Shown: positions 1 to 10,770, counted from the first letter of the stretch. The stretch is 21,434 bases of DNA from a virus (IMGVR_UViG_2695420514_000017:1-21434); one strand, 5' to 3'. The notes: a model not told the origin generated them from the letters alone. Numbers and translations are program-made.

Positions 1-1944
1 ATGAGTAACGGAAATATTAAATATCGACCAGAGATTGACGGACTACGATCAATTGCAGTGTTATCAGTAATATTATTCCATGCAGGGATAACACAATTTT
101 CTGGCGGATTTATTGGCGTTGATGTTTTCTTTGTAATAAGTGGTTATCTTATAACCACTATACTTGTAAATGAGCAAGAAAAAGGATTCATAAGCATTTC
201 TAATTTTTACAGGAGAAGGGCCAAAAGAATAATTCCTGCACTTTTCTTGGTGATTGCGGTAACCACTCCAGCAGCGTATTTATATTTAGCACCAAAAGAA
301 CTTTCCTCATATATTTCTAGTATTTTATATACAGCCACATTCTCATCAAATTTTCTTTTTTGGCAGGAGTCTGGGTATTGGGATACTGCAACAGCGCTAA
401 AACCACTTATTCATACATGGAGTCTTGCGGTAGAAGAGCAATTTTATCTTATATTCCCATTCATTGTAATGATGTTTTGGAGATTCGGCGCAATACTGTT
501 TTCTTTGTTTCTTGCTATTCTTATGGCTGGTAGCCTCTGGCTTTCTCAAAACTCACTGCTTGATAACCCAATGTTTTCTTTCTACATGCTTCCTGCTAGA
601 GCATGGGAGCTATTTGCTGGTTCAATTATAGCTGTGCTGCTAAAGCGGAGTAACATATACAACAGTTCAGGAATATTCAACCAAGTGGCATCAATTGCTG
701 GTCTTTTGCTGATCGTGTTCCCTGTTTTTTATTATACAGGAAAAACAAAATTTCCAGGTATTTCAGCGATACCGCCAGTTCTTGGTGCGGGTCTAATTAT
801 AATCACATCAAACTCAAATACCATAGTTGGGCGCATTTTAGGATCCAAGCCTTTTGTTGCGGTTGGTCTAATAAGTTATAGCGCGTATTTATGGCATCAG
901 CCAGTACTTGCATTTCTAAAGATAATAACTTTAGGACGGATGGATGTTGTTGATTCTCTTTTAGCTGTTGGATTGATACTTATACTATCAACCATTACTT
1001 ATCATTTAGTTGAAAAGCCAGTGAGATTTGGTCATACATTTTTTGGCAAGTGGCCACTTTTAACTACAGGAATAGCCTCATGCTTAATCATCGTTGCCTC
1101 TTTTACAGCATCTAAAGGTAATGGATTCCCAGATAGAATCAACTCTGTATATAGCGCGAAAGCTCAGGCAGTTGAATTAAAGAATACTCAATCATTTGTT
1201 TCAGATACGGAACCAGGTGAAAATAAACCGATCATTCTCATCATTGGTGACTCCTACGTCAGAAACTGGTCTATAGGGCTAAGAGAAAAAATCAACACAT
1301 CTAAATACCGAGTTGTATCTTTGACTTATCGTGGATGTGATGTCGATGTAAAATCAGATTCAGTTTTTGCAAAGCCTATTGAAAGCGCCTATAAAGAAAA
1401 CTGCAAATACTTAACAGATATGTTGAACAATAAAAATATAACTTCTCATATTGATAAGGTATTCCTTACATCTCACAGGCCATTTGCATATATTGCAAAC
1501 AATTTCAGATTCAATCTATTGAAGTATATTTCTTCGCACTCAAATTCAAAACTATATATATTTGGAAATTATTTTCAATATCACCCTATGAAAACGCAGA
1601 CATGCCTAAGCTCTATGTTTATTGCAAAGAGAGATGCAAGAGTTTGCATAGATAGTTCAGAGTACAGTGGTAATGAAGGTAAGATCACCGATAAATTAGG
1701 ATTATATCGCCCAATGGACACCTTAGGTTTACCCTATACGTATATAGATATTAAAAGCATGATTTGTGATAAAAAATCTAAATCGTGCCCATATGAGTAC
1801 AATGGGGTTCCATTTATGATTGATACAAACCATTTAACTGCTACGTTCGCCAAATTCCTTATTAGAACTATCACAGATAAGAATGCCAGATACTTTTCAA
1901 AAATTGGTCTCTCAGATGTTTTTTCATTTGATAAACCTAATTGA
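1..1944 (+). CDS. O-antigen/LPS O-acetyltransferase: acyltransferase-3 (AT3) membrane domain fused to a C-terminal SGNH-type domain (OafA/Oac-like lysogenic-conversion protein)
   Basis: 647 aa ORF. N-terminus has the RPEIDGLRSIAV...FHAG motif typical of AT3 acyltransferases, followed by many hydrophobic segments over roughly the first 370 aa. The C-terminal soluble part carries GDSY (IILIIGDSYVRNW) and a D-x-x-H motif (MIDTNHL) as in SGNH hydrolases. Markedly AT-rich relative to the structural genes. ATG at window position 1, so the start cannot be confirmed against upstream sequence. Confidence 0.85.
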   Translation: MSNGNIKYRPEIDGLRSIAVLSVILFHAGITQFSGGFIGVDVFFVISGYLITTILVNEQEKGFISISNFYRRRAKRIIPALFLVIAVTTPAAYLYLAPKELSSYISSILYTATFSSNFLFWQESGYWDTATALKPLIHTWSLAVEEQFYLIFPFIVMMFWRFGAILFSLFLAILMAGSLWLSQNSLLDNPMFSFYMLPARAWELFAGSIIAVLLKRSNIYNSSGIFNQVASIAGLLLIVFPVFYYTGKTKFPGISAIPPVLGAGLIIITSNSNTIVGRILGSKPFVAVGLISYSAYLWHQPVLAFLKIITLGRMDVVDSLLAVGLILILSTITYHLVEKPVRFGHTFFGKWPLLTTGIASCLIIVASFTASKGNGFPDRINSVYSAKAQAVELKNTQSFVSDTEPGENKPIILIIGDSYVRNWSIGLREKINTSKYRVVSLTYRGCDVDVKSDSVFAKPIESAYKENCKYLTDMLNNKNITSHIDKVFLTSHRPFAYIANNFRFNLLKYISSHSNSKLYIFGNYFQYHPMKTQTCLSSMFIAKRDARVCIDSSEYSGNEGKITDKLGLYRPMDTLGLPYTYIDIKSMICDKKSKSCPYEYNGVPFMIDTNHLTATFAKFLIRTITDKNARYFSKIGLSDVFSFDKPN

Positions 1945-1975: not shown

Positions 1976-1995
1976 ACCGCGCAATTTTGCGCGGT
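1976..1995. terminator. GC-rich hairpin between the convergent acetyltransferase and tailspike genes; possible bidirectional terminator
   Basis: ACCGCGC-aatttt-GCGCGGT: 7 bp perfect GC-rich stem lying between the two stop codons (1942-1944 and 2001-2003). Flanking U-tracts are weak on both strands. Confidence 0.35.
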
Positions 1996-2000
1996 TATGA

Positions 2001-4241
2001 TTAATCGGCAAGACCAAAGTTTCCGCGTTTGATGACGCTTGTAGCAAACCCTAGTATGGCTGTTGTTACTGTTGAAGCATCAAAATGATTTCCGATAATA
2101 ATGGCGTTTTCTGTGTTGTTTCCACTAAACCCTCTGACAGCATTGTATATGGTATTACCATTAAACAACTTACTCCCTCCTAGTGTCGCGATATCAACGG
2201 CAGAGCCTTGAAGTCTTATAGTTGTCGATGTTCCTGATAATACACAGTTGCTTATTTTAAAACTCCTAAAGTCCTTGTTAGGCTTCTCCTGCTTTATTGC
2301 ATATGACAATGCAGTTGCCGCAGTTGTTCCAGTGTCCTGGATAGTTACTCCGTCAATGACTATCTCATCAAAATCTAGTATCCTTGCTCCTATTTTTGTT
2401 GTCCCAGAATTTAGGTTGCTTCCCTTTCTGTAGTTGATATCCTTGATAATCATCCTGTTTGTTGCGTACGTGACAGATTTTGCTTGAGAATAAATTAGAT
2501 TAGGTGCATCTCCAGTAAGGTAACCAGAGATGGAAAAGTCACCAACAGAACTTTGCACATAGAATACAAAGTCATATAGGCCTGATACATTAAATAATGT
2601 AATTCCGTTAATTCTGAAGTCCTGCGTCATTCCTATGCGCATTAGGGAGTCTGTAGTTCTGACTGTTGTATTTGGTATTCTGGCAGTCCCGTAACAGTCT
2701 ATATTATTAATTGAAAGGCCGACGACACCATTGGTTCCATCCAGAGAACGAGAGTGGATTGCTTCGCCGTAATTTCCATCTACTATACAATTTGATAAAA
2801 CTATATCGTTTATAGGGACACCAATCGCTCCAAAATAAAATCCACTGCATATCCCAGTTGGTGCTGTTTGACCAGTAGGAAGATTATCTATTGGAGGATT
2901 GTTCTTCGATGATGTGCACCTGTCGAAGTAAAATCCTCGTTGAACAAATCCTGAAGGTACAGATGTGTAATCGTGCCCATGTAAATTAAAACCAAAACCA
3001 CAGTTTGCTATAGCCTTGCAGTTCCTGAATGTGAGTCCAGATACCGGAACATCTGTAACTTTAAAACCACTGCAACTTTCAGTTGTCATCGTTCCTGGGC
3101 TAGGCATGAATGGTATCCCATTCTCTTCAGCGATGCATGATTCTAATAGAAGGTTGTCAATACCAAAATCCTCTGCGACACCACTTGTAACAGATGCGAT
3201 CCTAAATCCATCGTTATTTCTATATGAATAACAGTTTATTACTGTTGAGTCTTTAGCCCCTGTAATAAACAGCGGGTAAACCATTCCAAGACCTTTCATC
3301 CCTTCACAATAGAATCCAGATACCTGCCTGGTGGTACCAACCCTTATCCCTATAGCAATTTTAGGCTCCCTCTCTCCTTGGCTTCTAGACTCACCATCAA
3401 TAGTGAACTCTCCAAGTAATGACACGTTATCCTCATTAATTATGAAGTATTCGTGAGTATCAGCAGTTCCATCTGATTTGAATATGGCGTTATCGAACCT
3501 GAGTGACTGACCTTTCTTTAAAGAATGAAGACCCGTTGAAAGATATGTTCCGCTAGGAAAAAAAATTGAAGCATCATCTCCAGATGAGTTGATTAGGTTA
3601 TTAATTTCATTAGTGCTTGAGACGACACCGTGTGGATTGACTCCGAACCACAGAGCATTTATTTCTCCTTCATACAGCCTCTTCCAGCGTCTATTCAAGG
3701 AATCAACTAAAATTGTCCCATCGTTGTCAGCACTAACTGCATCTGAATCATCACGATAAAAGATGCCGTCAGCACCATCAAATGGCGATAATCGCCCGAA
3801 ACAATATATGTGGTCAAGTTGACCATTATACTCCCTTATTTGATTATATAATGCTCCACCTACATACCCAAAGCCATAGAAATCTCCTACTAATGTTCTA
3901 AACTGGTCTGGATTATACTTCAGAACATTCGGAAAATAGAACTGCTGCGCACCGTACGCATCATAAACAGCCATAGAGTGGCCTTGCACAGTTACGAACT
4001 TGGCAATCTGTCCGTTATATACCGGATATCCGGCAGCGTTAATGATGATTGGTTGCGAAACAGGAACGTGAGAACCGTCTTCGTTCTCCACATAAACCTG
4101 AATCTGGTTTTCAGGATTTACAGGGTCAGTGTCAATTTTACCGATATAAATTTTGCCATTGGCTACGGCTTTAAAAGAACGAGCCATAGTGAAGAGTTGC
4201 GAAGGCATGCTTACCACAACATTTGCGGTGATATCTGTCAT
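2001..4241 (-). CDS. Tailspike protein: P22 gp9-like N-terminal head-binding domain plus a divergent receptor-binding/depolymerase body
   Basis: 746 aa. The first ~115 aa ([34 protein letters not shown]...[13 protein letters not shown]...NVLKYNPDQ) closely match the P22/Sf6 tailspike head-binding domain as I recall it. The remainder is G/N/S/T-rich, typical of a beta-helix, and does not resemble the P22 endorhamnosidase body from memory. Minus-strand GGAG lies 9 nt upstream of the ATG. Confidence 0.9.
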
Positions 4242-4341: not shown

Positions 4342-5220
4342 TCAGTAGTTATGTACTGAAGGAGGTAATTCTTTATTCTTAAGTCTCATCCATGCGGAAA
4401 GATTCGTTGGTCCGTCTGGCTCATTGATATCAACATCTCGTGTGTGATTGATTAAAACGTCCCTCGCCATTCCGATAACATACGAGAACTCATGACCGTA
4501 GTCGTAGCATCTGCCGGAATAGTTCGATTGAATTTGTTTTAATGCCGGATACAGTTCGCGGAATAATGCCTGTGAGCGATTGGCATAATCCCATAACCAT
4601 ACAAGGCTGTTTGCTTCTTTTGCAGAAAGCTCGTTGACTTTCCTCTCTTGTTTGCCGATAAACTCGCCTTCAAGCACTACCCTGTGGATGTACTCTACGG
4701 CCAGCGGGATTTGTTCAATTGAAAGTTCATCAATGCTGTCAATACCAAAACGCTGATGAACCATATTGTATGCATCGTCATAGCGAAGTCCTTTCTTTCC
4801 TACCAGCATGTTTACTGCATCGCGTAGCGGTGTTCTTTCCTCAACAGTGGTTTTCTTGCCTTTCACATACTCTCCATGTTTGCGAATCGAAGGCAGAACT
4901 TCTGCTGTTACCCACTTGCGGAATTTGTGCGGGACTGAACCTTTATTGACAGCATCGCGGCAGCGCAGAACCAATGTATACATACCTGATTCGCTAACAA
5001 TGCTTAGATTCTGCTCACCACCAAGGGTGTAACTTAAAGTTACTCCCTTTTCATCGTCATCAAGTGCAGTAAGCGCCTTGCGTGAGTTAGTCAAAGATAA
5101 AGCATCACAAACATCTTTAGCTACAAACCACGGCTCACCGCACTTGTTGATGACGCGGATTTCACTGTCGCCGAATTTGAAGATGGTGAAATCGTTTTGT
5201 GCCTTTGCTATACTTTTCAT
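4342..5220 (-). CDS. ant: Antirepressor Ant (Bro-N domain protein)
   Basis: 292 aa. N-terminal Bro-N-like motif ([28 protein letters not shown]...RLDDDEKG...[17 protein letters not shown]) resembles P22 Ant as recalled. Position directly downstream of arc matches immI. Confidence 0.85.
5186..5214 (+). promoter_or_regulatory. Candidate Psar: extended -10 promoter inside the 5' end of ant, reading antisense
   Basis: TGcTATACT at 5206-5214 fits the extended -10 pattern (TGnTATAAT). Weak -35-like GTGAAA at 5186-5191 with a 17 bp spacer. Predicted start near 5221-5223, just past the ant start codon on the opposite strand. Confidence 0.4.
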
Positions 5221-5292
5221 GTCAATATTTCCTAATCCGATTTGTTGATAACGAAGCCCTGACTGTTACCGCAGTTGGGGCTTCAACTTTTT
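5221..5292 (+). ncRNA. sar: Candidate sar-like antisense RNA complementary to the ant ribosome-binding region
   Basis: Plus-strand hairpin at 5253-5284 (GAAGCCC...GGGCTTC outer stem with an inner GACTG/CAGTT extension) followed by aac-TTTTT (5288-5292) is an intrinsic terminator on the strand opposite arc-ant. With the extended -10 at 5206-5214 this predicts a roughly 70 nt RNA covering the complement of the ant RBS and start codon, as described for P22 sar (68-69 nt). Confidence 0.45.
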
Positions 5293-5456
5293 GCTAGATT
5301 ACCTTTAGAACTATCCCGCCTTAAACTATCCACCAACCGCATTACCATCTCGGTATTTATTGAGCGGCCATTTTCTTTCGCTGACTTCTCGATTGCTAAC
5401 TTAACCTCTAATGGGATGCGCAAAGGGTACTTTGGTGCGTCTGACTTGACTATCAT
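5283..5456 (-). CDS. arc: Arc repressor (ribbon-helix-helix)
   Basis: 57 aa from the ATG at 5454-5456 with a GGAGG RBS 4 nt upstream on the minus strand. PKYPLRIPLEVKLAIEKSAKENGRSINTEMVMRLV aligns with P22 Arc (FNLRWPREVLDLVRKVAEENGRSVNSEIYQRV) as recalled. The ORF-track start at 5471 is a TTG extension. Confidence 0.85.
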   Translation of the reverse strand: MIVKSDAPKYPLRIPLEVKLAIEKSAKENGRSINTEMVMRLVDSLRRDSSKGNLAKS

Positions 5457-5474
5457 ATTACCTCCAATCAATTT

Positions 5475-5491
5475 GGTATAACCGTTATACC
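5475..5491. promoter_or_regulatory. Perfect 17 bp palindrome; candidate Mnt-type operator over the Pant -10 and start site
   Basis: GGTATAAC-C-GTTATACC is a perfect 8-1-8 inverted repeat. It overlaps the predicted Pant -10 (5484-5489) and transcription start. P22 Omnt is likewise a 17 bp near-symmetric site overlapping the Pant start, from memory. Confidence 0.55.
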
Positions 5492-5512
5492 ATTGTGATC
5501 GCAGTGATGCAA
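5484..5512 (-). promoter_or_regulatory. Candidate Pant (promoter of the arc-ant operon)
   Basis: On the minus strand, TTGCAT (plus 5507-5512), 17 bp spacer, TATAAC (plus 5484-5489). Correctly placed upstream of the arc RBS. Confidence 0.5.
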
Positions 5513-5521
5513 TAGTAATAT
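5493..5521 (+). promoter_or_regulatory. Candidate Pmnt (divergent promoter for mnt)
   Basis: TTGTGA (5493-5498), 17 bp spacer, TAATAT (5516-5521), about 24 bp upstream of the mnt ATG. Its -35 abuts the Pant -35, giving back-to-back divergent promoters as in P22 immI. The region between them (about 5491-5516) is the expected place for an Arc operator, but I could not define one confidently. Confidence 0.4.
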
Positions 5522-5544
5522 CACCAAAATGCTATGGAGGTGGT

Positions 5545-5781
5545 ATGTCACGCGAAGAGCCGCAAATAAATATCAGGATTTCCAAAGAGTTAAAGGCAAA
5601 GGTTAAAGCCAGGGCGCAACATAACAAGCGTTCCATGAATGCTGAAATAATACAGATTATCGAAGATGCTGTTTGTGGTAGATCGCTTAATAGCAATGAA
5701 TTTGCTCAGAAAGAGGCTGACAAATTCAGGGATGCGCTGCTTGAAACACTGAAAACCATGTATGGTAAGGATGCAAAATGA
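5545..5781 (+). CDS. mnt: Mnt repressor (ribbon-helix-helix maintenance repressor)
   Basis: 78 aa. INIRISKELKAKVKARAQHNKRSMNAEIIQIIEDAV aligns with P22 Mnt (FNFRMPMEVREKLKFRAEANGRSMNSELLQIVQDAL) as recalled. GGAGG RBS 4 nt before the ATG. Divergent from arc. Confidence 0.85.
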   Translation: MSREEPQINIRISKELKAKVKARAQHNKRSMNAEIIQIIEDAVCGRSLNSNEFAQKEADKFRDALLETLKTMYGKDAK

Positions 5782-5987
5782 ATAAAAAACAGTTTATTAA
5801 GTCAAAAACGTCAAGCAAGGAAGAGCTAGAGAAAGAGCTAAACTCCCTGAAATACGCTCTGTGTCTGGTTTACTCAAGACTGCCAATGGAAGATAAAAAC
5901 GCTATTTACAATGAAATGATTAGCAGCCTTGATTTTAACGATAGAGACCTTGCATCCCACCTCAACAGCTTCCGCGTCCCTGAGTAA
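5778..5987 (+). CDS. Hypothetical 69 aa protein translationally coupled to mnt
   Basis: The ATG at 5778-5780 overlaps the mnt stop (ATGA). Hydrophilic, predicted helical (KEELEKELNSLKYAL). No family recognised. Confidence 0.55.
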   Translation: MNKKQFIKSKTSSKEELEKELNSLKYALCLVYSRLPMEDKNAIYNEMISSLDFNDRDLASHLNSFRVPE

Positions 5988-6147
5988 TTCTGTTGCGGAT
6001 TTGCTTCTTGCGGTGGTTTAGGCTGGAGAGCTTGGCTTCTGCTTCCGATATTTGCGCATCTAGATCTTTAAGCTCAAGATCTGAAAGTCGCTGGTCAAGC
6101 AGGGTTTGGTTTAACTCAATGTTGTTCAGGCGTTCTTCTATGGTCAT
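5962..6147 (-). CDS. Hypothetical small coiled-coil protein (61 aa from the second ATG)
   Basis: MTIEERLNNIELNQTLLDQRLSDLELKDLDAQISEAEAKL shows heptad-like periodicity. AGGA lies about 8 nt upstream of the ATG at 6145-6147 on the minus strand. Convergent with, and overlapping by 26 bp, the 3' end of the preceding plus ORF, so it is uncertain. Confidence 0.4.
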   Translation of the reverse strand: MTIEERLNNIELNQTLLDQRLSDLELKDLDAQISEAEAKLSSLNHRKKQIRNRITQGRGSC

Positions 6148-6178
6148 AACTTTCATCCTATAACTATTTGGAATCAAA

Positions 6179-6361
6179 ATGAAAAATATATTAATTGGTT
6201 TCGTTTTTGGTGCAGCCTGCGCCGCCAGCATTAGCGTCATCGCCGCCCAGGTTGTTGGTGGTAACTCATATCTAATGGGCTATGACGTCATGATAAATGG
6301 AGAGGTTGTTTGCTCAGATCCTTATGTATGGACCTCGACAAAAGAAATAGAATGTGACTAA
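6179..6361 (+). CDS. Hypothetical small membrane-anchored or secreted peptide (60 aa) with two Cys in the C-terminal part
   Basis: Hydrophobic N-terminus [26 protein letters not shown] (signal peptide or single TM helix), then a 35 aa tail with two Cys (…[20 protein letters not shown]). Weak RBS (GGAA) but a clear intrinsic terminator immediately after the stop. Confidence 0.5.
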
Positions 6362-6363
6362 TA

Positions 6364-6389
6364 CCAGCCTGATGGCTGGTTAATTTTTT
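6364..6389 (+). terminator. Rho-independent terminator after the 60 aa peptide gene
   Basis: CCAGCC-tgat-GGCTGG hairpin (6364-6379) followed by TTAATTTTTT (6380-6389), 3 bp after the stop codon. Confidence 0.6.
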
Positions 6390-6406
6390 CATTTACCTGG
6401 GCCATA

Positions 6407-6437
6407 TTGACTACTTATAAAATGAGATCAATATTTA
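6407..6437 (+). promoter_or_regulatory. Possible promoter for the YjzC-like gene
   Basis: TTGACT at 6407-6412, with an AT-rich -10-like ATATTT/TATTTA about 18-19 bp downstream (6431-6437). The -10 assignment is weak. Confidence 0.3.
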
Positions 6438-6471
6438 ATCGCCCAATAACGGGTGTATGTTGAGGTATATC

Positions 6472-6651
6472 ATGGCGAAAAAACCAGGTGAAAACACAGG
6501 AAAAAACGGCGGAATATACCAAGAAGTTGGCCCGCGCGGCGGTAAGAAAGACAATTTTGCCACCGTCAAGGACAACGAAAGGCTTCCGCCAACAACAAAG
6601 CCAGGTCATGGCTGGGTATTAGATAAGCGAACTCCAGACAGCAAAAAGTAA
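6472..6651 (+). CDS. YjzC-like small protein (59 aa)
   Basis: MAKKPGENTGKNGGIYQEVGPRGGKKDNFATVKDNERLPPTTKPGHGWV follows the KPG...G.Y.E.G..G......V.....LP.T...G.W pattern I associate with the YjzC-like family. GAGG RBS 6 nt before the ATG at 6472. An upstream in-frame ATG at 6457 has a poorer RBS. Confidence 0.65.
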   Translation: MAKKPGENTGKNGGIYQEVGPRGGKKDNFATVKDNERLPPTTKPGHGWVLDKRTPDSKK

Positions 6652-6657
6652 TAATCA

Positions 6658-6680
6658 AGCCGGGTCACTCCGGCTTTTTG
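6658..6680 (+). terminator. Rho-independent terminator after the YjzC-like gene
   Basis: AGCCGG-gtcact-CCGGCT hairpin (6658-6675) followed by TTTT-G (6676-6680), 7 bp after the stop. The stop codon of the convergent minus-strand HExxH ORF lies inside the hairpin. Confidence 0.65.
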
Positions 6681-7030
6681 ATATGTCGCTCGCAGAACTC
6701 AACAAGCCTGCTCATTAAGTAGCAGTAAGTCTCGTTGGCTCTTCCTGGTTCAACATCAACACCGACCCTTGAGCAGATATCGAATGCCATGTGAGCGCAC
6801 TCATGGGCAATAGTAGATAGTTTGCCATTGAACACACCTATCACATGCAAAACACCATTCTCGCTGCTCATTGTATGAGACGCTCCGTTGGCATCCGAGT
6901 CCTGCACGTCCACGCCAAGTTTTTGATGCAGGCGTTGCCATTCTGGAAAGTCTCTGCAAAACACAATCGTACCGCTCTCAAAGAGCGGTACGAGCATCTT
7001 TGGTACGTTTCCAATGTTAACTTTTTTCAT
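6665..7030 (-). CDS. Hypothetical 121 aa protein with an HExxH motif (possible small zinc metallopeptidase-like or Zn-binding protein)
   Basis: From the ATG at 7028-7030 (AGGA 4 nt upstream on the minus strand): MKKVNIGNVPK...STIAHECAHMAFDICSRVGVDVEPGRANETYCYLMSRLVEF. HECAH with a downstream Glu and nearby Cys suggests metal binding. Sequence looks protein-like, unlike the overlapping N-terminal extension of the plus ORF. The ORF-track start at 7069 is a TTG. Confidence 0.5.
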   Translation of the reverse strand: MKKVNIGNVPKMLVPLFESGTIVFCRDFPEWQRLHQKLGVDVQDSDANGASHTMSSENGVLHVIGVFNGKLSTIAHECAHMAFDICSRVGVDVEPGRANETYCYLMSRLVEFCERHIKKPE

Positions 7031-7060
7031 GGTATCCTGCTCAAAACTAAGGAGGTTGGT

Positions 7061-7450
7061 GTGAAGCAATTTCTTGCTGCTATGTTCTTATTCATATCTT
7101 TTGGGGCTACAGCAGAGTGCTGGGTCGTTGGAGATATGCGCGGAATAAGCTATTCAGAACGCAATAATTTCCATCCGGTAGAAGATGGTTTTAGTGGAAC
7201 ATTCACCATTAAGACAAGCGGTGAAGATGCCAGCATCACATATTCTGGTACAGATGCGGGCGGCATGGCTTACAAAGCATTGTCTAAAAACTCCATCATA
7301 GGAATCGGCGCGAATGGCGAAACTCAACGCGTTATCGACTCATGGGTAATACATCCTACTGGAACAGTTTTAATGTCAAAAACCATTTCCGGTTATGGAA
7401 ATATGGATTCAACCAAAGCTTTTGTTGGAAAAGTAAAAAGAAAATGTTAG
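7061..7450 (+). CDS. Hypothetical secreted (periplasmic) protein, about 129 aa precursor, predicted Sec signal peptide
   Basis: Strong AAGGAGG RBS (7049-7055) 5 nt before an in-frame GTG at 7061. N-terminus MKQFLAAMFLFISFGATA|ECWVV has an n/h/c signal-peptide layout with an A-x-A cleavage site. Mature part is beta-rich (TFTIKTSGEDASITYSGTDAGG...) with Cys at both ends. The 72-codon upstream extension in the ORF track is antisense to the HExxH ORF and not credible. Confidence 0.6.
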   Translation: MKQFLAAMFLFISFGATAECWVVGDMRGISYSERNNFHPVEDGFSGTFTIKTSGEDASITYSGTDAGGMAYKALSKNSIIGIGANGETQRVIDSWVIHPTGTVLMSKTISGYGNMDSTKAFVGKVKRKC

Positions 7451-9385: not shown

Positions 9386-10770
9386 TACTGCCCTCCGAGA
9401 TATTTGCTAATTAATTCGTCATCGGACAATTGCTGTTGAGGTTGGCTATCGCCATAACTTGAGGAAAGAAAACGTTTTGCCGCAGAGTTCAATGATTCAC
9501 CCTTCTTAACATCCATCCCCATGATGTTTCGGTTGCGATCAGATTGTCCTGGGCTGCCGTTTGCACTCATCCACTCTGACCTAAACTCGTTGAACTTCGC
9601 GTTATTACTTTCCATTTTTGCCATACCCCTTAACCATCGAGCCATGACCATTGGATTATCCGTTTCGCTTGGAATACCTTTCCTTGCAAACTCAATATCC
9701 TTATCTGATGCAGGGCCTGGAGGGAGAAGCTTGGTTGCCTGCGCATTGGCTAGTTGGTTGAATCTAATCCGCATATCTCGGAGGTAGTTATCTTGCCCCG
9801 TAAGCTTAGAGAACATATTTTCAGCGTTACCGAACAAACCAGGAGTTGGCTTCTCCTTCTCCAGCGTGTCAGCGAGCGTTGTCATTGAATCGGCAGCATT
9901 ACGACTAGCTGCCGCATCACCTGCTGATTTTTCTATAGCCTTTTCCATGTTCACTGATAATTTTGGCGCAGCATTAATAAGTTCCTCGGCCTTTTTTTGT
10001 GCCTGTTGTACTTCAAAACCGAATTTCTGCTTATCAAGTGCCAGTCTTTCTGCTGCAAGTCCGTGTCCGGTCATTGCAGACTGATAGGAAAGGTTTTGCC
10101 CCCTAATAGCCCTCGCATTCGTCATGTCATTATTGCGAATGGTTTCGTTAATTCTTTGCTGCTCCTGCTGGCGACCAACCATCTTATCCTGAACAGCAAA
10201 CGCCTTTTCTGGTCCAAGCGCACCGAGAGACATAGTAGTCAGCATGTGTGATAGCTGCTCTGGATTCTGAATACCTGTCTGAATCATCCAGTCAGCATTA
10301 GCGCCAACGCGATTTAACCTGTCCTTGTTGTCAGTAATGAATTTACTGTAGGCTTCCGGTCCCTGAGAAAGAGCGACGTTAGCCCTCATGGCTAAATCGC
10401 CCATATCGTTGCGTTGCTGCTCATTAAGACCGGAAAATGCCTGTTGTGCCTGTGCAACAAACGCTGGATTTTCCTGGGCAAACTTAAATAGTCCCGATGG
10501 ATCACCAGAAGCCCATGCATCAGCATGAACCTTATTGAACGCATTAATCGCTTTCTGTTGCTGTTCCTGCTTATAAATATCAGCAACTCCAGCCAGACCA
10601 CGTAACGCGGTCAGACCAACGTTATTTGCACTTGAGCGAGCCAGTTCATTGTTTTCGCGGATCAGACCAAGCGTTGCGTTAATGTCGCTTGCCTTTGGCG
10701 CATTCTCGTTTTGCGCACCAATGCCAGCCAGAAAACCACCAGAATTAATACCCTGTTGCCACGTAGCCAT
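9385..10770 (-). CDS. Ejection (E) protein, P22 gp20 homolog
   Basis: 461 aa, helical and Q/A-rich, in the syntenic position between the gp7 and gp16 homologs. Confidence 0.9.

Follow-up and report, generated by a model that had tools for sequence, protein, structure and literature searches.

The window analysed here, a stretch of 21,434 nucleotides of viral DNA (IMGVR_UViG_2695420514_000017:1-21434), opens exactly at the ATG start codon of a gene encoding a fused AT3-SGNH acyltransferase, a putative O-antigen O-acetyltransferase; a tailspike gene faces it on the opposite strand, and the rest of the window is the morphogenesis and immI region of a P22-like phage (Lederbergvirus). The acetyltransferase reading frame is intact, with 647 codons (647 aa) followed by a stop at 1942-1944 (Table 1). 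A chance open reading frame is ruled out by the occurrence of a frame of this length in 35 % GC DNA together with two above-threshold Pfam matches, one to Acyl_transf_3 (PF01757; 107 bits against a cut-off of 31) and one to PF19040, 'SGNH domain (fused to AT3 domains)' (71 bits against a cut-off of 27). The translation contains a GDSY motif (G416-D417-S418-Y419, nt 1246-1257) and a DTNH motif (D608-T609-N610-H611, nt 1822-1833), which between them supply a predicted catalytic triad of S418 (nt 1252-1254), D608 (nt 1822-1824) and H611 (nt 1831-1833). Among phage protein families, PHROG 6705, 'O-antigen acetylase', covers the full length of the protein (E 2.3e-183), while PHROG 3333, which comprises AT3-only proteins, aligns with just the N-terminal half and is a far poorer match. 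An earlier note, made from the sequence alone, had described a 647-residue protein with an AT3 domain fused to an SGNH domain carrying these two motifs, encoded by a very AT-rich gene lying tail-to-tail with the tailspike gene. The domains and motifs are confirmed by Pfam and by the translation, the composition by a GC content of 35.6 % (28.5 % at third codon positions) compared with about 50 % in the structural genes (47-52 % for the ejection-protein genes, gp16, gp20 and gp7, and the head genes), and the arrangement by convergence of the two genes across a 56 bp spacer.

The residues on which enzymes of this type depend are conserved. Conservation was read from alignments of 51-54 homologues, and the motif definitions and architecture of OafA and OafB were taken from Pearson et al. 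(PMC7448272). R16 and H27, which form the R/K-x10-H motif of the first transmembrane helix, are invariant in 54 sequences. Invariant too are the S116-N117 pair in the loop between transmembrane helices 3 and 4, all three arginines in and beside the RxxR motif (R73-A-K-R76, plus R72), and E338, which lies just past transmembrane helix 10 and outside the Pfam AT3 span. The loop motif typical of the fused type is present as G35-G36-F37-I38-G39-V40-D41, with G35, G36, G39, V40 and D41 invariant, and the FFxISG motif as F43-F44-V45-I46-S47-G48, in which I46 is found in at least 90 % of the sequences and the other five residues in all of them. In the SGNH domain G416, D417 and S418 of block I and D608 and H611 of block V are likewise invariant; of two cysteine pairs, C446/C468 is fully and C589/C596 almost fully conserved, a pattern that would fit periplasmic disulfides. 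The reference AT3-SGNH enzyme is Salmonella OafA, the abequose O-acetyltransferase responsible for the O:5 factor, in which R14, H25, G34, D39, R69, R72, S112, E325, S412, D587 and H590 are essential or important and conserved disulfide pairs have likewise been described (Pearson et al., PMC7448272). OafA is chromosomal and the window gene phage-borne, and the two were compared through these published residues rather than by sequence alignment; each listed residue, and each disulfide pair, has a one-to-one counterpart in the window protein, and the counterparts of the residues critical for activity, catalytic and functional, are all invariant in its family.

An AlphaFold2 model built from the family alignment (mean predicted local distance difference test score, pLDDT, 91; predicted template modelling score 0.88) contains ten transmembrane helices, an eleventh at residues 352-372, linker helices at 377-382 and 386-396 (pLDDT >90) and an alpha/beta domain at 411-634. 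In this model the eleventh helix and the linker are predicted to put the C-terminal SGNH domain in the periplasm, as in OafA and OafB. Because a single-sequence phmmer search of the PDB gave no match, a family profile was needed to find solved relatives; its sole significant match was 6SE1 (E 2.9e-13), the SGNH structure of an OafB homologue from S. Paratyphi A.

The gene belongs to a prophage. The identical protein is present on 13 public contigs, with 100 % identical DNA in five independent public contigs or assemblies, and its source names read 'acyltransferase family protein [Escherichia albertii]', with a few drafts labelled E. coli. Carrier strains are represented by SRR14038770, SRR13494845, DRR017172, SRR35744853 and GCA_032537085.1. 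The upstream sequence was read in one of the public contigs with the identical gene (L001, in which the window starts at 10001). On the public contigs the upstream DNA is chromosomal, comprising the end of the pdu operon, then tmaR, yeeA, sbmC and dacD, and this flank is 87 % identical to E. coli, which fits E. albertii. Codons 1-16 of sbcB (MMNNGKHQPTFLFHDY) lie at L001 9505-9552 and run abruptly into phage DNA 450 bp before the acetyltransferase gene, which places the insertion site of the prophage within the 5' end of sbcB. The window is thus a P22-like prophage of E. albertii. The acetyltransferase gene is its outermost gene at the sbcB end, in the classical serotype-conversion slot between the tailspike and the attachment site and integrase (att/int). 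The best match to the backbone by megablast is Escherichia phage Kapi1 (95.9 % identity), with CUS-3 and Sf101 similar; the alignments to these phages set in at about position 3903 of the window, where the head-binding domain of the tailspike ends.

The convergent gene (2001-4241, minus strand) encodes 746 aa and is identified as a tailspike by the match of its first 113 residues to the P22 Head_binding domain in Pfam (E 1.3e-66); its N-terminus also matches those of the solved Sf6 and P22 tailspikes in the PDB. The receptor-binding part is far more distinctive, its best relative among 50,697 phage records being a 40 % identical protein of Proteus phage PM 116, and no match to it was found in 5,426 complete E. 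coli genomes, even by sensitive blastn. Its N-terminal third bears weak similarity to WceF (6TGF) and to an Acinetobacter-type tail fibre (5W5P). The spacer between the two genes contains a GC-rich hairpin, which folds at -18.7 and -19.7 kcal/mol on the two strands (z -2.3 and -3.5 relative to shuffled sequences). A terminator scan downstream of the acetyltransferase gene called no canonical intrinsic terminator, the hairpin being passed over because it is not followed by a T-run; it is a possible bidirectional terminator of the convergent genes.

Table 1. Coordinates in the window of the acetyltransferase gene, the tailspike gene and their parts
Feature	Position	Strand	Evidence and remarks
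AT3-SGNH fused acyltransferase gene, putative O-antigen O-acetyltransferase (lysogenic-conversion gene)	1..1944	+	Open reading frame, Pfam, PHROG
AT3 transmembrane domain, residues 10-334, 10 transmembrane helices	28..1002	+	Pfam PF01757 and conserved motifs
11th transmembrane helix (residues 352-372) and helical linker/SGNH extension (~373-405)	1054..1215	+	AlphaFold2 helices
Periplasmic SGNH domain, residues 406-623	1216..1869	+	Pfam PF19040; predicted
GC-rich hairpin ACCGCGCA-AUUU-UGCGCGGU in 56 bp spacer	1976..1995		RNA folding
Tailspike receptor-binding part, residues ~114-746	2001..3902	-	GC 40.1 %; same low-GC cassette as acetyltransferase
Tailspike N-terminal head-binding domain, residues 1-113	3903..4241	-	Pfam, PDB, megablast; conserved P22-like backbone, cassette flank

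Comparison with the closest relative outside the cluster of the window protein, an 83 % identical acetyltransferase at a locus that we refer to as L011, shows that the acetyltransferase and the tailspike travel together. The two acetyltransferase genes differ by 375 substitutions and no insertions or deletions across 1,929 aligned bases, a pattern in keeping with purifying selection. The tailspike that accompanies the L011 gene has 66 % identity to the window tailspike over its whole length, while the spikes of more distant acetyltransferase relatives are unrelated to it. The 107 bp upstream of the acetyltransferase genes are 99 % identical between the two prophages, compared with 80.6 % for the acetyltransferase genes themselves and 77 % for the spike where it can be aligned, and the acetyltransferase gene and the receptor-binding domain of the spike therefore make up a divergent, low-GC cassette of ~3.9 kb. 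It is flanked by conserved backbone on both sides, with the 3' end of an integrase gene on one and the head-binding domain on the other, and a cassette flanked in this way is the expected substrate for exchange by homologous recombination. The acetyltransferase and the tailspike receptor-binding domain are thus co-inherited and move as one unit.

The same layout, in which att/int is followed by the acetyltransferase and then by a convergent gene for a receptor-binding protein, recurs in BTP1, SPN1S (in which the acetyltransferase is annotated in two pieces), Ab31, PAJU2 and L011, and also in a myovirus-like prophage that carries a 55 % identical acetyltransferase; two of the relatives with this layout are metagenomic. 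The exception is the D3-like phage PMG1, in which the acetyltransferase lies after the tail genes, in their orientation, and is convergent with wzy-beta.

In the upstream region the integrase sequence is a vestige of ~50 bp at L001 9885-9937, 64-116 bp upstream of the acetyltransferase gene, which corresponds to the 3'-terminal part of an integrase gene of the Kapi1/Sf6 type (ending in RREMMQWWADWLDEKD and the stop) and is 96 % identical to the end of Kapi1 int and 99 % identical to the intact int of L011. The possibility that a complete integrase gene is hidden in the upstream 450 bp was rejected, as all six frames are closed and just the last ~50 bp match an integrase 3' end. The vestige marks a past recombination event by which the cassette became joined to another att arm. 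In BTP1, the BTP1_017 region located between int and gtrA has 71 % identity to part of the att-proximal non-coding arm seen here (L001 9639-9856), and a 12 bp direct repeat, TTTGGTACACAA, is present twice at L001 9607-9630; the two copies may be a candidate pair of recombinase arm-binding sites. The 705 bp upstream of the gene contain one GATC only and lack the Dam/OxyR phase-variation signature of gtr type, and no tandem or simple repeat of the kind associated with phase variation was found in the 5' coding region of the acetyltransferase gene.

The acetyltransferase has many homologues, and both the AT3 and SGNH domains are present in every one of the best 120 listed. Among the matches listed none exceeds 55 % identity outside the protein's own cluster and the 83 % relative in L011. 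Megablast with positions 1-2000 of the window found no match in the phage records or the complete E. coli genomes, sensitive blastn of the latter returned a 117 bp fragment of the AT3 region in one genome only, and a peptide-pattern scan of the species-representative genomes of GTDB found no relative of the acetyltransferase. What is new is the divergent subfamily, the E. albertii host and the novel partner tailspike, and the novelty is modest.

The best characterized counterpart is GtrC of the Salmonella phage BTP1, a family II GtrC since renamed OafB, for which there is experimental proof of function. Like the window protein it is a fused AT3-SGNH enzyme of ~640 aa encoded by a P22-like Lederbergvirus prophage, and its gene too has att/int on one side and, on the other, a tailspike gene on which it converges. 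The two proteins have 35 % identity in a stretch that covers the AT3 domain and reaches the GDS block, and all of the functional motifs are common to both, although past the GDS block the SGNH domains show no similarity by pairwise BLAST; the OafB structure 6SE1 is nevertheless the closest solved SGNH structure to the window protein. Unlike BTP1, the window locus has neither a gtrA remnant upstream nor a signature of Dam/OxyR type, and since the host differs and the tailspike is unrelated to that of BTP1 the acceptor sugar is probably different too. The earlier note set the long fused form apart from short AT3-only proteins of the Sf6 Oac type, but the fused form is not unusual, BTP1 providing a characterized precedent in the same slot. 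The note's proposal of an O-antigen-modifying acetyltransferase in a serotype-conversion pairing with the tailspike fares better, being supported by PHROG 6705, the likeness to OafB and the genomic context, and a search for the homology with peptidoglycan O-acetyltransferases that it had named as grounds for abandoning that proposal instead placed OafB closest among solved SGNH structures.

Oac of Sf6 and OacB of Sf101, both from P22-like phages of Shigella flexneri, occupy the same slot beside the tailspike and int/att and follow the same logic, in that O-acetylation alters the serotype and hinders the endorhamnosidase of the phage itself. They share the AT3 motifs R/K-x10-H, FFxISG and RxxR with the window protein, but are AT3-only proteins, without the eleventh helix and the SGNH domain. 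The closest phage relatives are found instead in temperate phages of Pseudomonas aeruginosa, YA3, Ab31 (52 % identity) and PAJU2 (44 %), with similarity that extends over the full length and includes the SGNH domain. Ab31 and PAJU2 have the same layout of integrase or lysis module, acetyltransferase and convergent tail-fibre or structural gene, and their acetyltransferases belong to the same PHROG 6705, but these phages infect another host order, have other backbones, and carry tail fibres unrelated to the window tailspike. Still more distant is the HGSNAT/TmAT superfamily, which includes the human lysosomal heparan-alpha-glucosaminide N-acetyltransferase; identity is just 16 %, and HGSNAT is eukaryotic, has no SGNH partner and catalyses N-acetylation rather than O-acetylation.

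The product of the window gene is, in our view, likely to be a two-domain O-acyltransferase of the OafA/OafB type located in the inner membrane, and the gene itself a lysogenic-conversion gene of an E. albertii P22-like prophage. This reading is based on the domain architecture, the conserved functional residues, the predicted fold, the closest solved relative, the prophage context and the co-inheritance with the tailspike; that the O-antigen is the acceptor, that the group transferred is acetyl, that lysogens express the gene and that it protects against the cognate phage is what we infer. On the model of OafA and OafB, the 10-helix AT3 domain would bind acetyl-CoA from the cytoplasm, with R16, H27 and the arginines of RxxR lining the binding cavity, and would present the acetyl group at the periplasmic face. 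The eleventh helix and linker would tether the periplasmic SGNH domain, whose Ser418-Asp608-His611 triad would accept the acetyl group and hand it on to a hydroxyl of one of the sugars in the O-antigen repeat. Expression from the prophage would then alter the O-antigen epitope of the lysogen, and the modified polysaccharide would most likely be a poor substrate for the co-inherited tailspike, with the result that superinfection would be limited and fewer progeny would be lost on lysogen debris. In both BTP1 and Sf6, O-acetylation shields the lysogen from the phage's own tailspike.

Several observations weigh against this interpretation. Biochemically characterized relatives reach no higher than 35 % identity, the Pseudomonas phage relatives (44-52 %) are named by homology only, and the receptor-binding domain of the tailspike has no characterized relative in the PDB or the phage records, which bears on the identity of the receptor. 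Acetyl as the acyl group is an assumption, since the AT3 family also includes succinyltransferases and other acyltransferases and the top NCBIfam match is SucT, although it falls far under its cut-off. Expression in the lysogen is called into question by a sigma-70 consensus scan of the 705 bp upstream, which found no promoter, and two members of the cluster are shorter, at 473 and 419 aa, through either contig ends or decay. The 473 aa copy is probably a genuine truncation rather than the product of a contig end, because it lies on a 460 kb contig (labelled E. coli), and the shortened copies hint at decay of the gene in some lineages. The lack of a consensus promoter and the shortened copies would also fit a gene that is carried along in the prophage inactive or silent, a leftover of recombination that does not affect the lysogen, as would its position 68 bp past the 50 bp integrase vestige, a sign of past rearrangement. 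We regard this as quite improbable, given that the 647-codon frame is intact in AT-rich DNA with all catalytic and structural residues conserved, that the sequence is identical in five assemblies, and that the differences from the L011 gene are substitutions without any insertion or deletion, in keeping with purifying selection; weak promoter-like hexamers, which missed the rules of the scan, can moreover be seen by eye in the conserved 107 bp upstream (L001 9894-10000).

A somewhat stronger competitor, though still an unlikely one, is that the enzyme acylates another surface polysaccharide used as the tailspike receptor, such as a K-antigen or group 4 capsule, colanic acid or enterobacterial common antigen. 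The informative weak matches of the receptor-binding part lie in its N-terminal third and point in this direction, being to WceF (6TGF, E 4e-9), an exopolysaccharide-related tailspike-like protein, and to a colanic-acid-degradation PHROG; moreover, the related P22-like phage CUS-3 targets a capsule that is acetylated by the product of the neighbouring gene. The closest solved and characterized relatives of the window protein, 6SE1 and BTP1 GtrC, nevertheless act on the O-antigen, the phage family is annotated as O-antigen acetylase, and we know of no acetyltransferase for enterobacterial common antigen, colanic acid or K1 that is of the AT3-SGNH type, the known ones being AT3-only or cytoplasmic hexapeptide-repeat enzymes. 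Much the least credible alternative is a peptidoglycan O-acetyltransferase of the OatA type. OatA does have the same AT3-SGNH architecture, and two homologues bear corresponding source names, 'Putative peptidoglycan O-acetyltransferase' in Ab31 and 'O-acetyltransferase OatA' in P0007 from a compost metagenome, but the SGNH domain does not conform to that of OatA, which acts on N-acetylmuramic acid, and the profile search that matched 6SE1 returned PatB at E 0.24 and no OatA chain.

Some further features of the prophage and its surroundings were noted. E. coli MS1657 carries an unrelated lambdoid prophage, with other tail fibres, at the same sbcB site, and this prophage has an adjacent arm of ~380 bp in common (~91 % identity). 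In the carrier strains the O-antigen gene cluster is located past the far end of the prophage, outside the 10 kb flanks that were covered. At the end of the pdu operon the pduV product is 76 aa in the E. albertii contigs (L001 5222-5452; L002 4058-4489), L002 having an additional separate pduV piece of 56 aa, compared with the intact 147 aa of E. coli MS1657, and pduV may be disrupted in these E. albertii strains. Within the window the P22-type immI region (4342-5781) comprises an antirepressor with Bro-N and P22_AR_C domains (4342-5220, minus strand), an Arc-like repressor (5283-5471, minus strand) and a divergent Arc/Mnt-like ribbon-helix-helix gene (5545-5781, plus strand). Between immI and the ejection-protein genes, a slot that in P22-like phages often carries superinfection-exclusion or moron genes, six small open reading frames lie on both strands (5778-7450), each matching a PHROG of unknown function (16466, 7586, 37095, 3202, 1365 and 2651); the two that were scanned, 6665-7069 and 6845-7450, gave no Pfam match.

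A more far-reaching proposal, which we advance tentatively and with considerable doubt, is that acetyltransferase and tailspike form a co-diverging 'modify-and-recognise' cassette specific to an E. albertii O-antigen, defining an unrecognized O-factor, that is, an acetylated sugar or position, of what is an emerging pathogen. If this were true, conversion genes would have passed between phages whose hosts belong to different bacterial orders, given that the acetyltransferase lineage is also found in temperate phages of Pseudomonas (44-52 % identity); a common acceptor sugar with the Pseudomonas phage systems is a matter of speculation.

In summary, the arrangement described here is already well known from other phages, raises no new question and leaves the view of how these systems work unchanged; what it contributes to a well-understood class is an example from E. 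albertii and a divergent subfamily whose identity to proteins outside its own cluster is 55 % at most. Should the enzyme be active, the O-antigen displayed by lysogens would be an acetylated variant, which could influence E. albertii serotyping, antibody recognition and phage susceptibility, and the tailspike linked to it would offer a ready-made means of probing for the receptor in its unmodified form.
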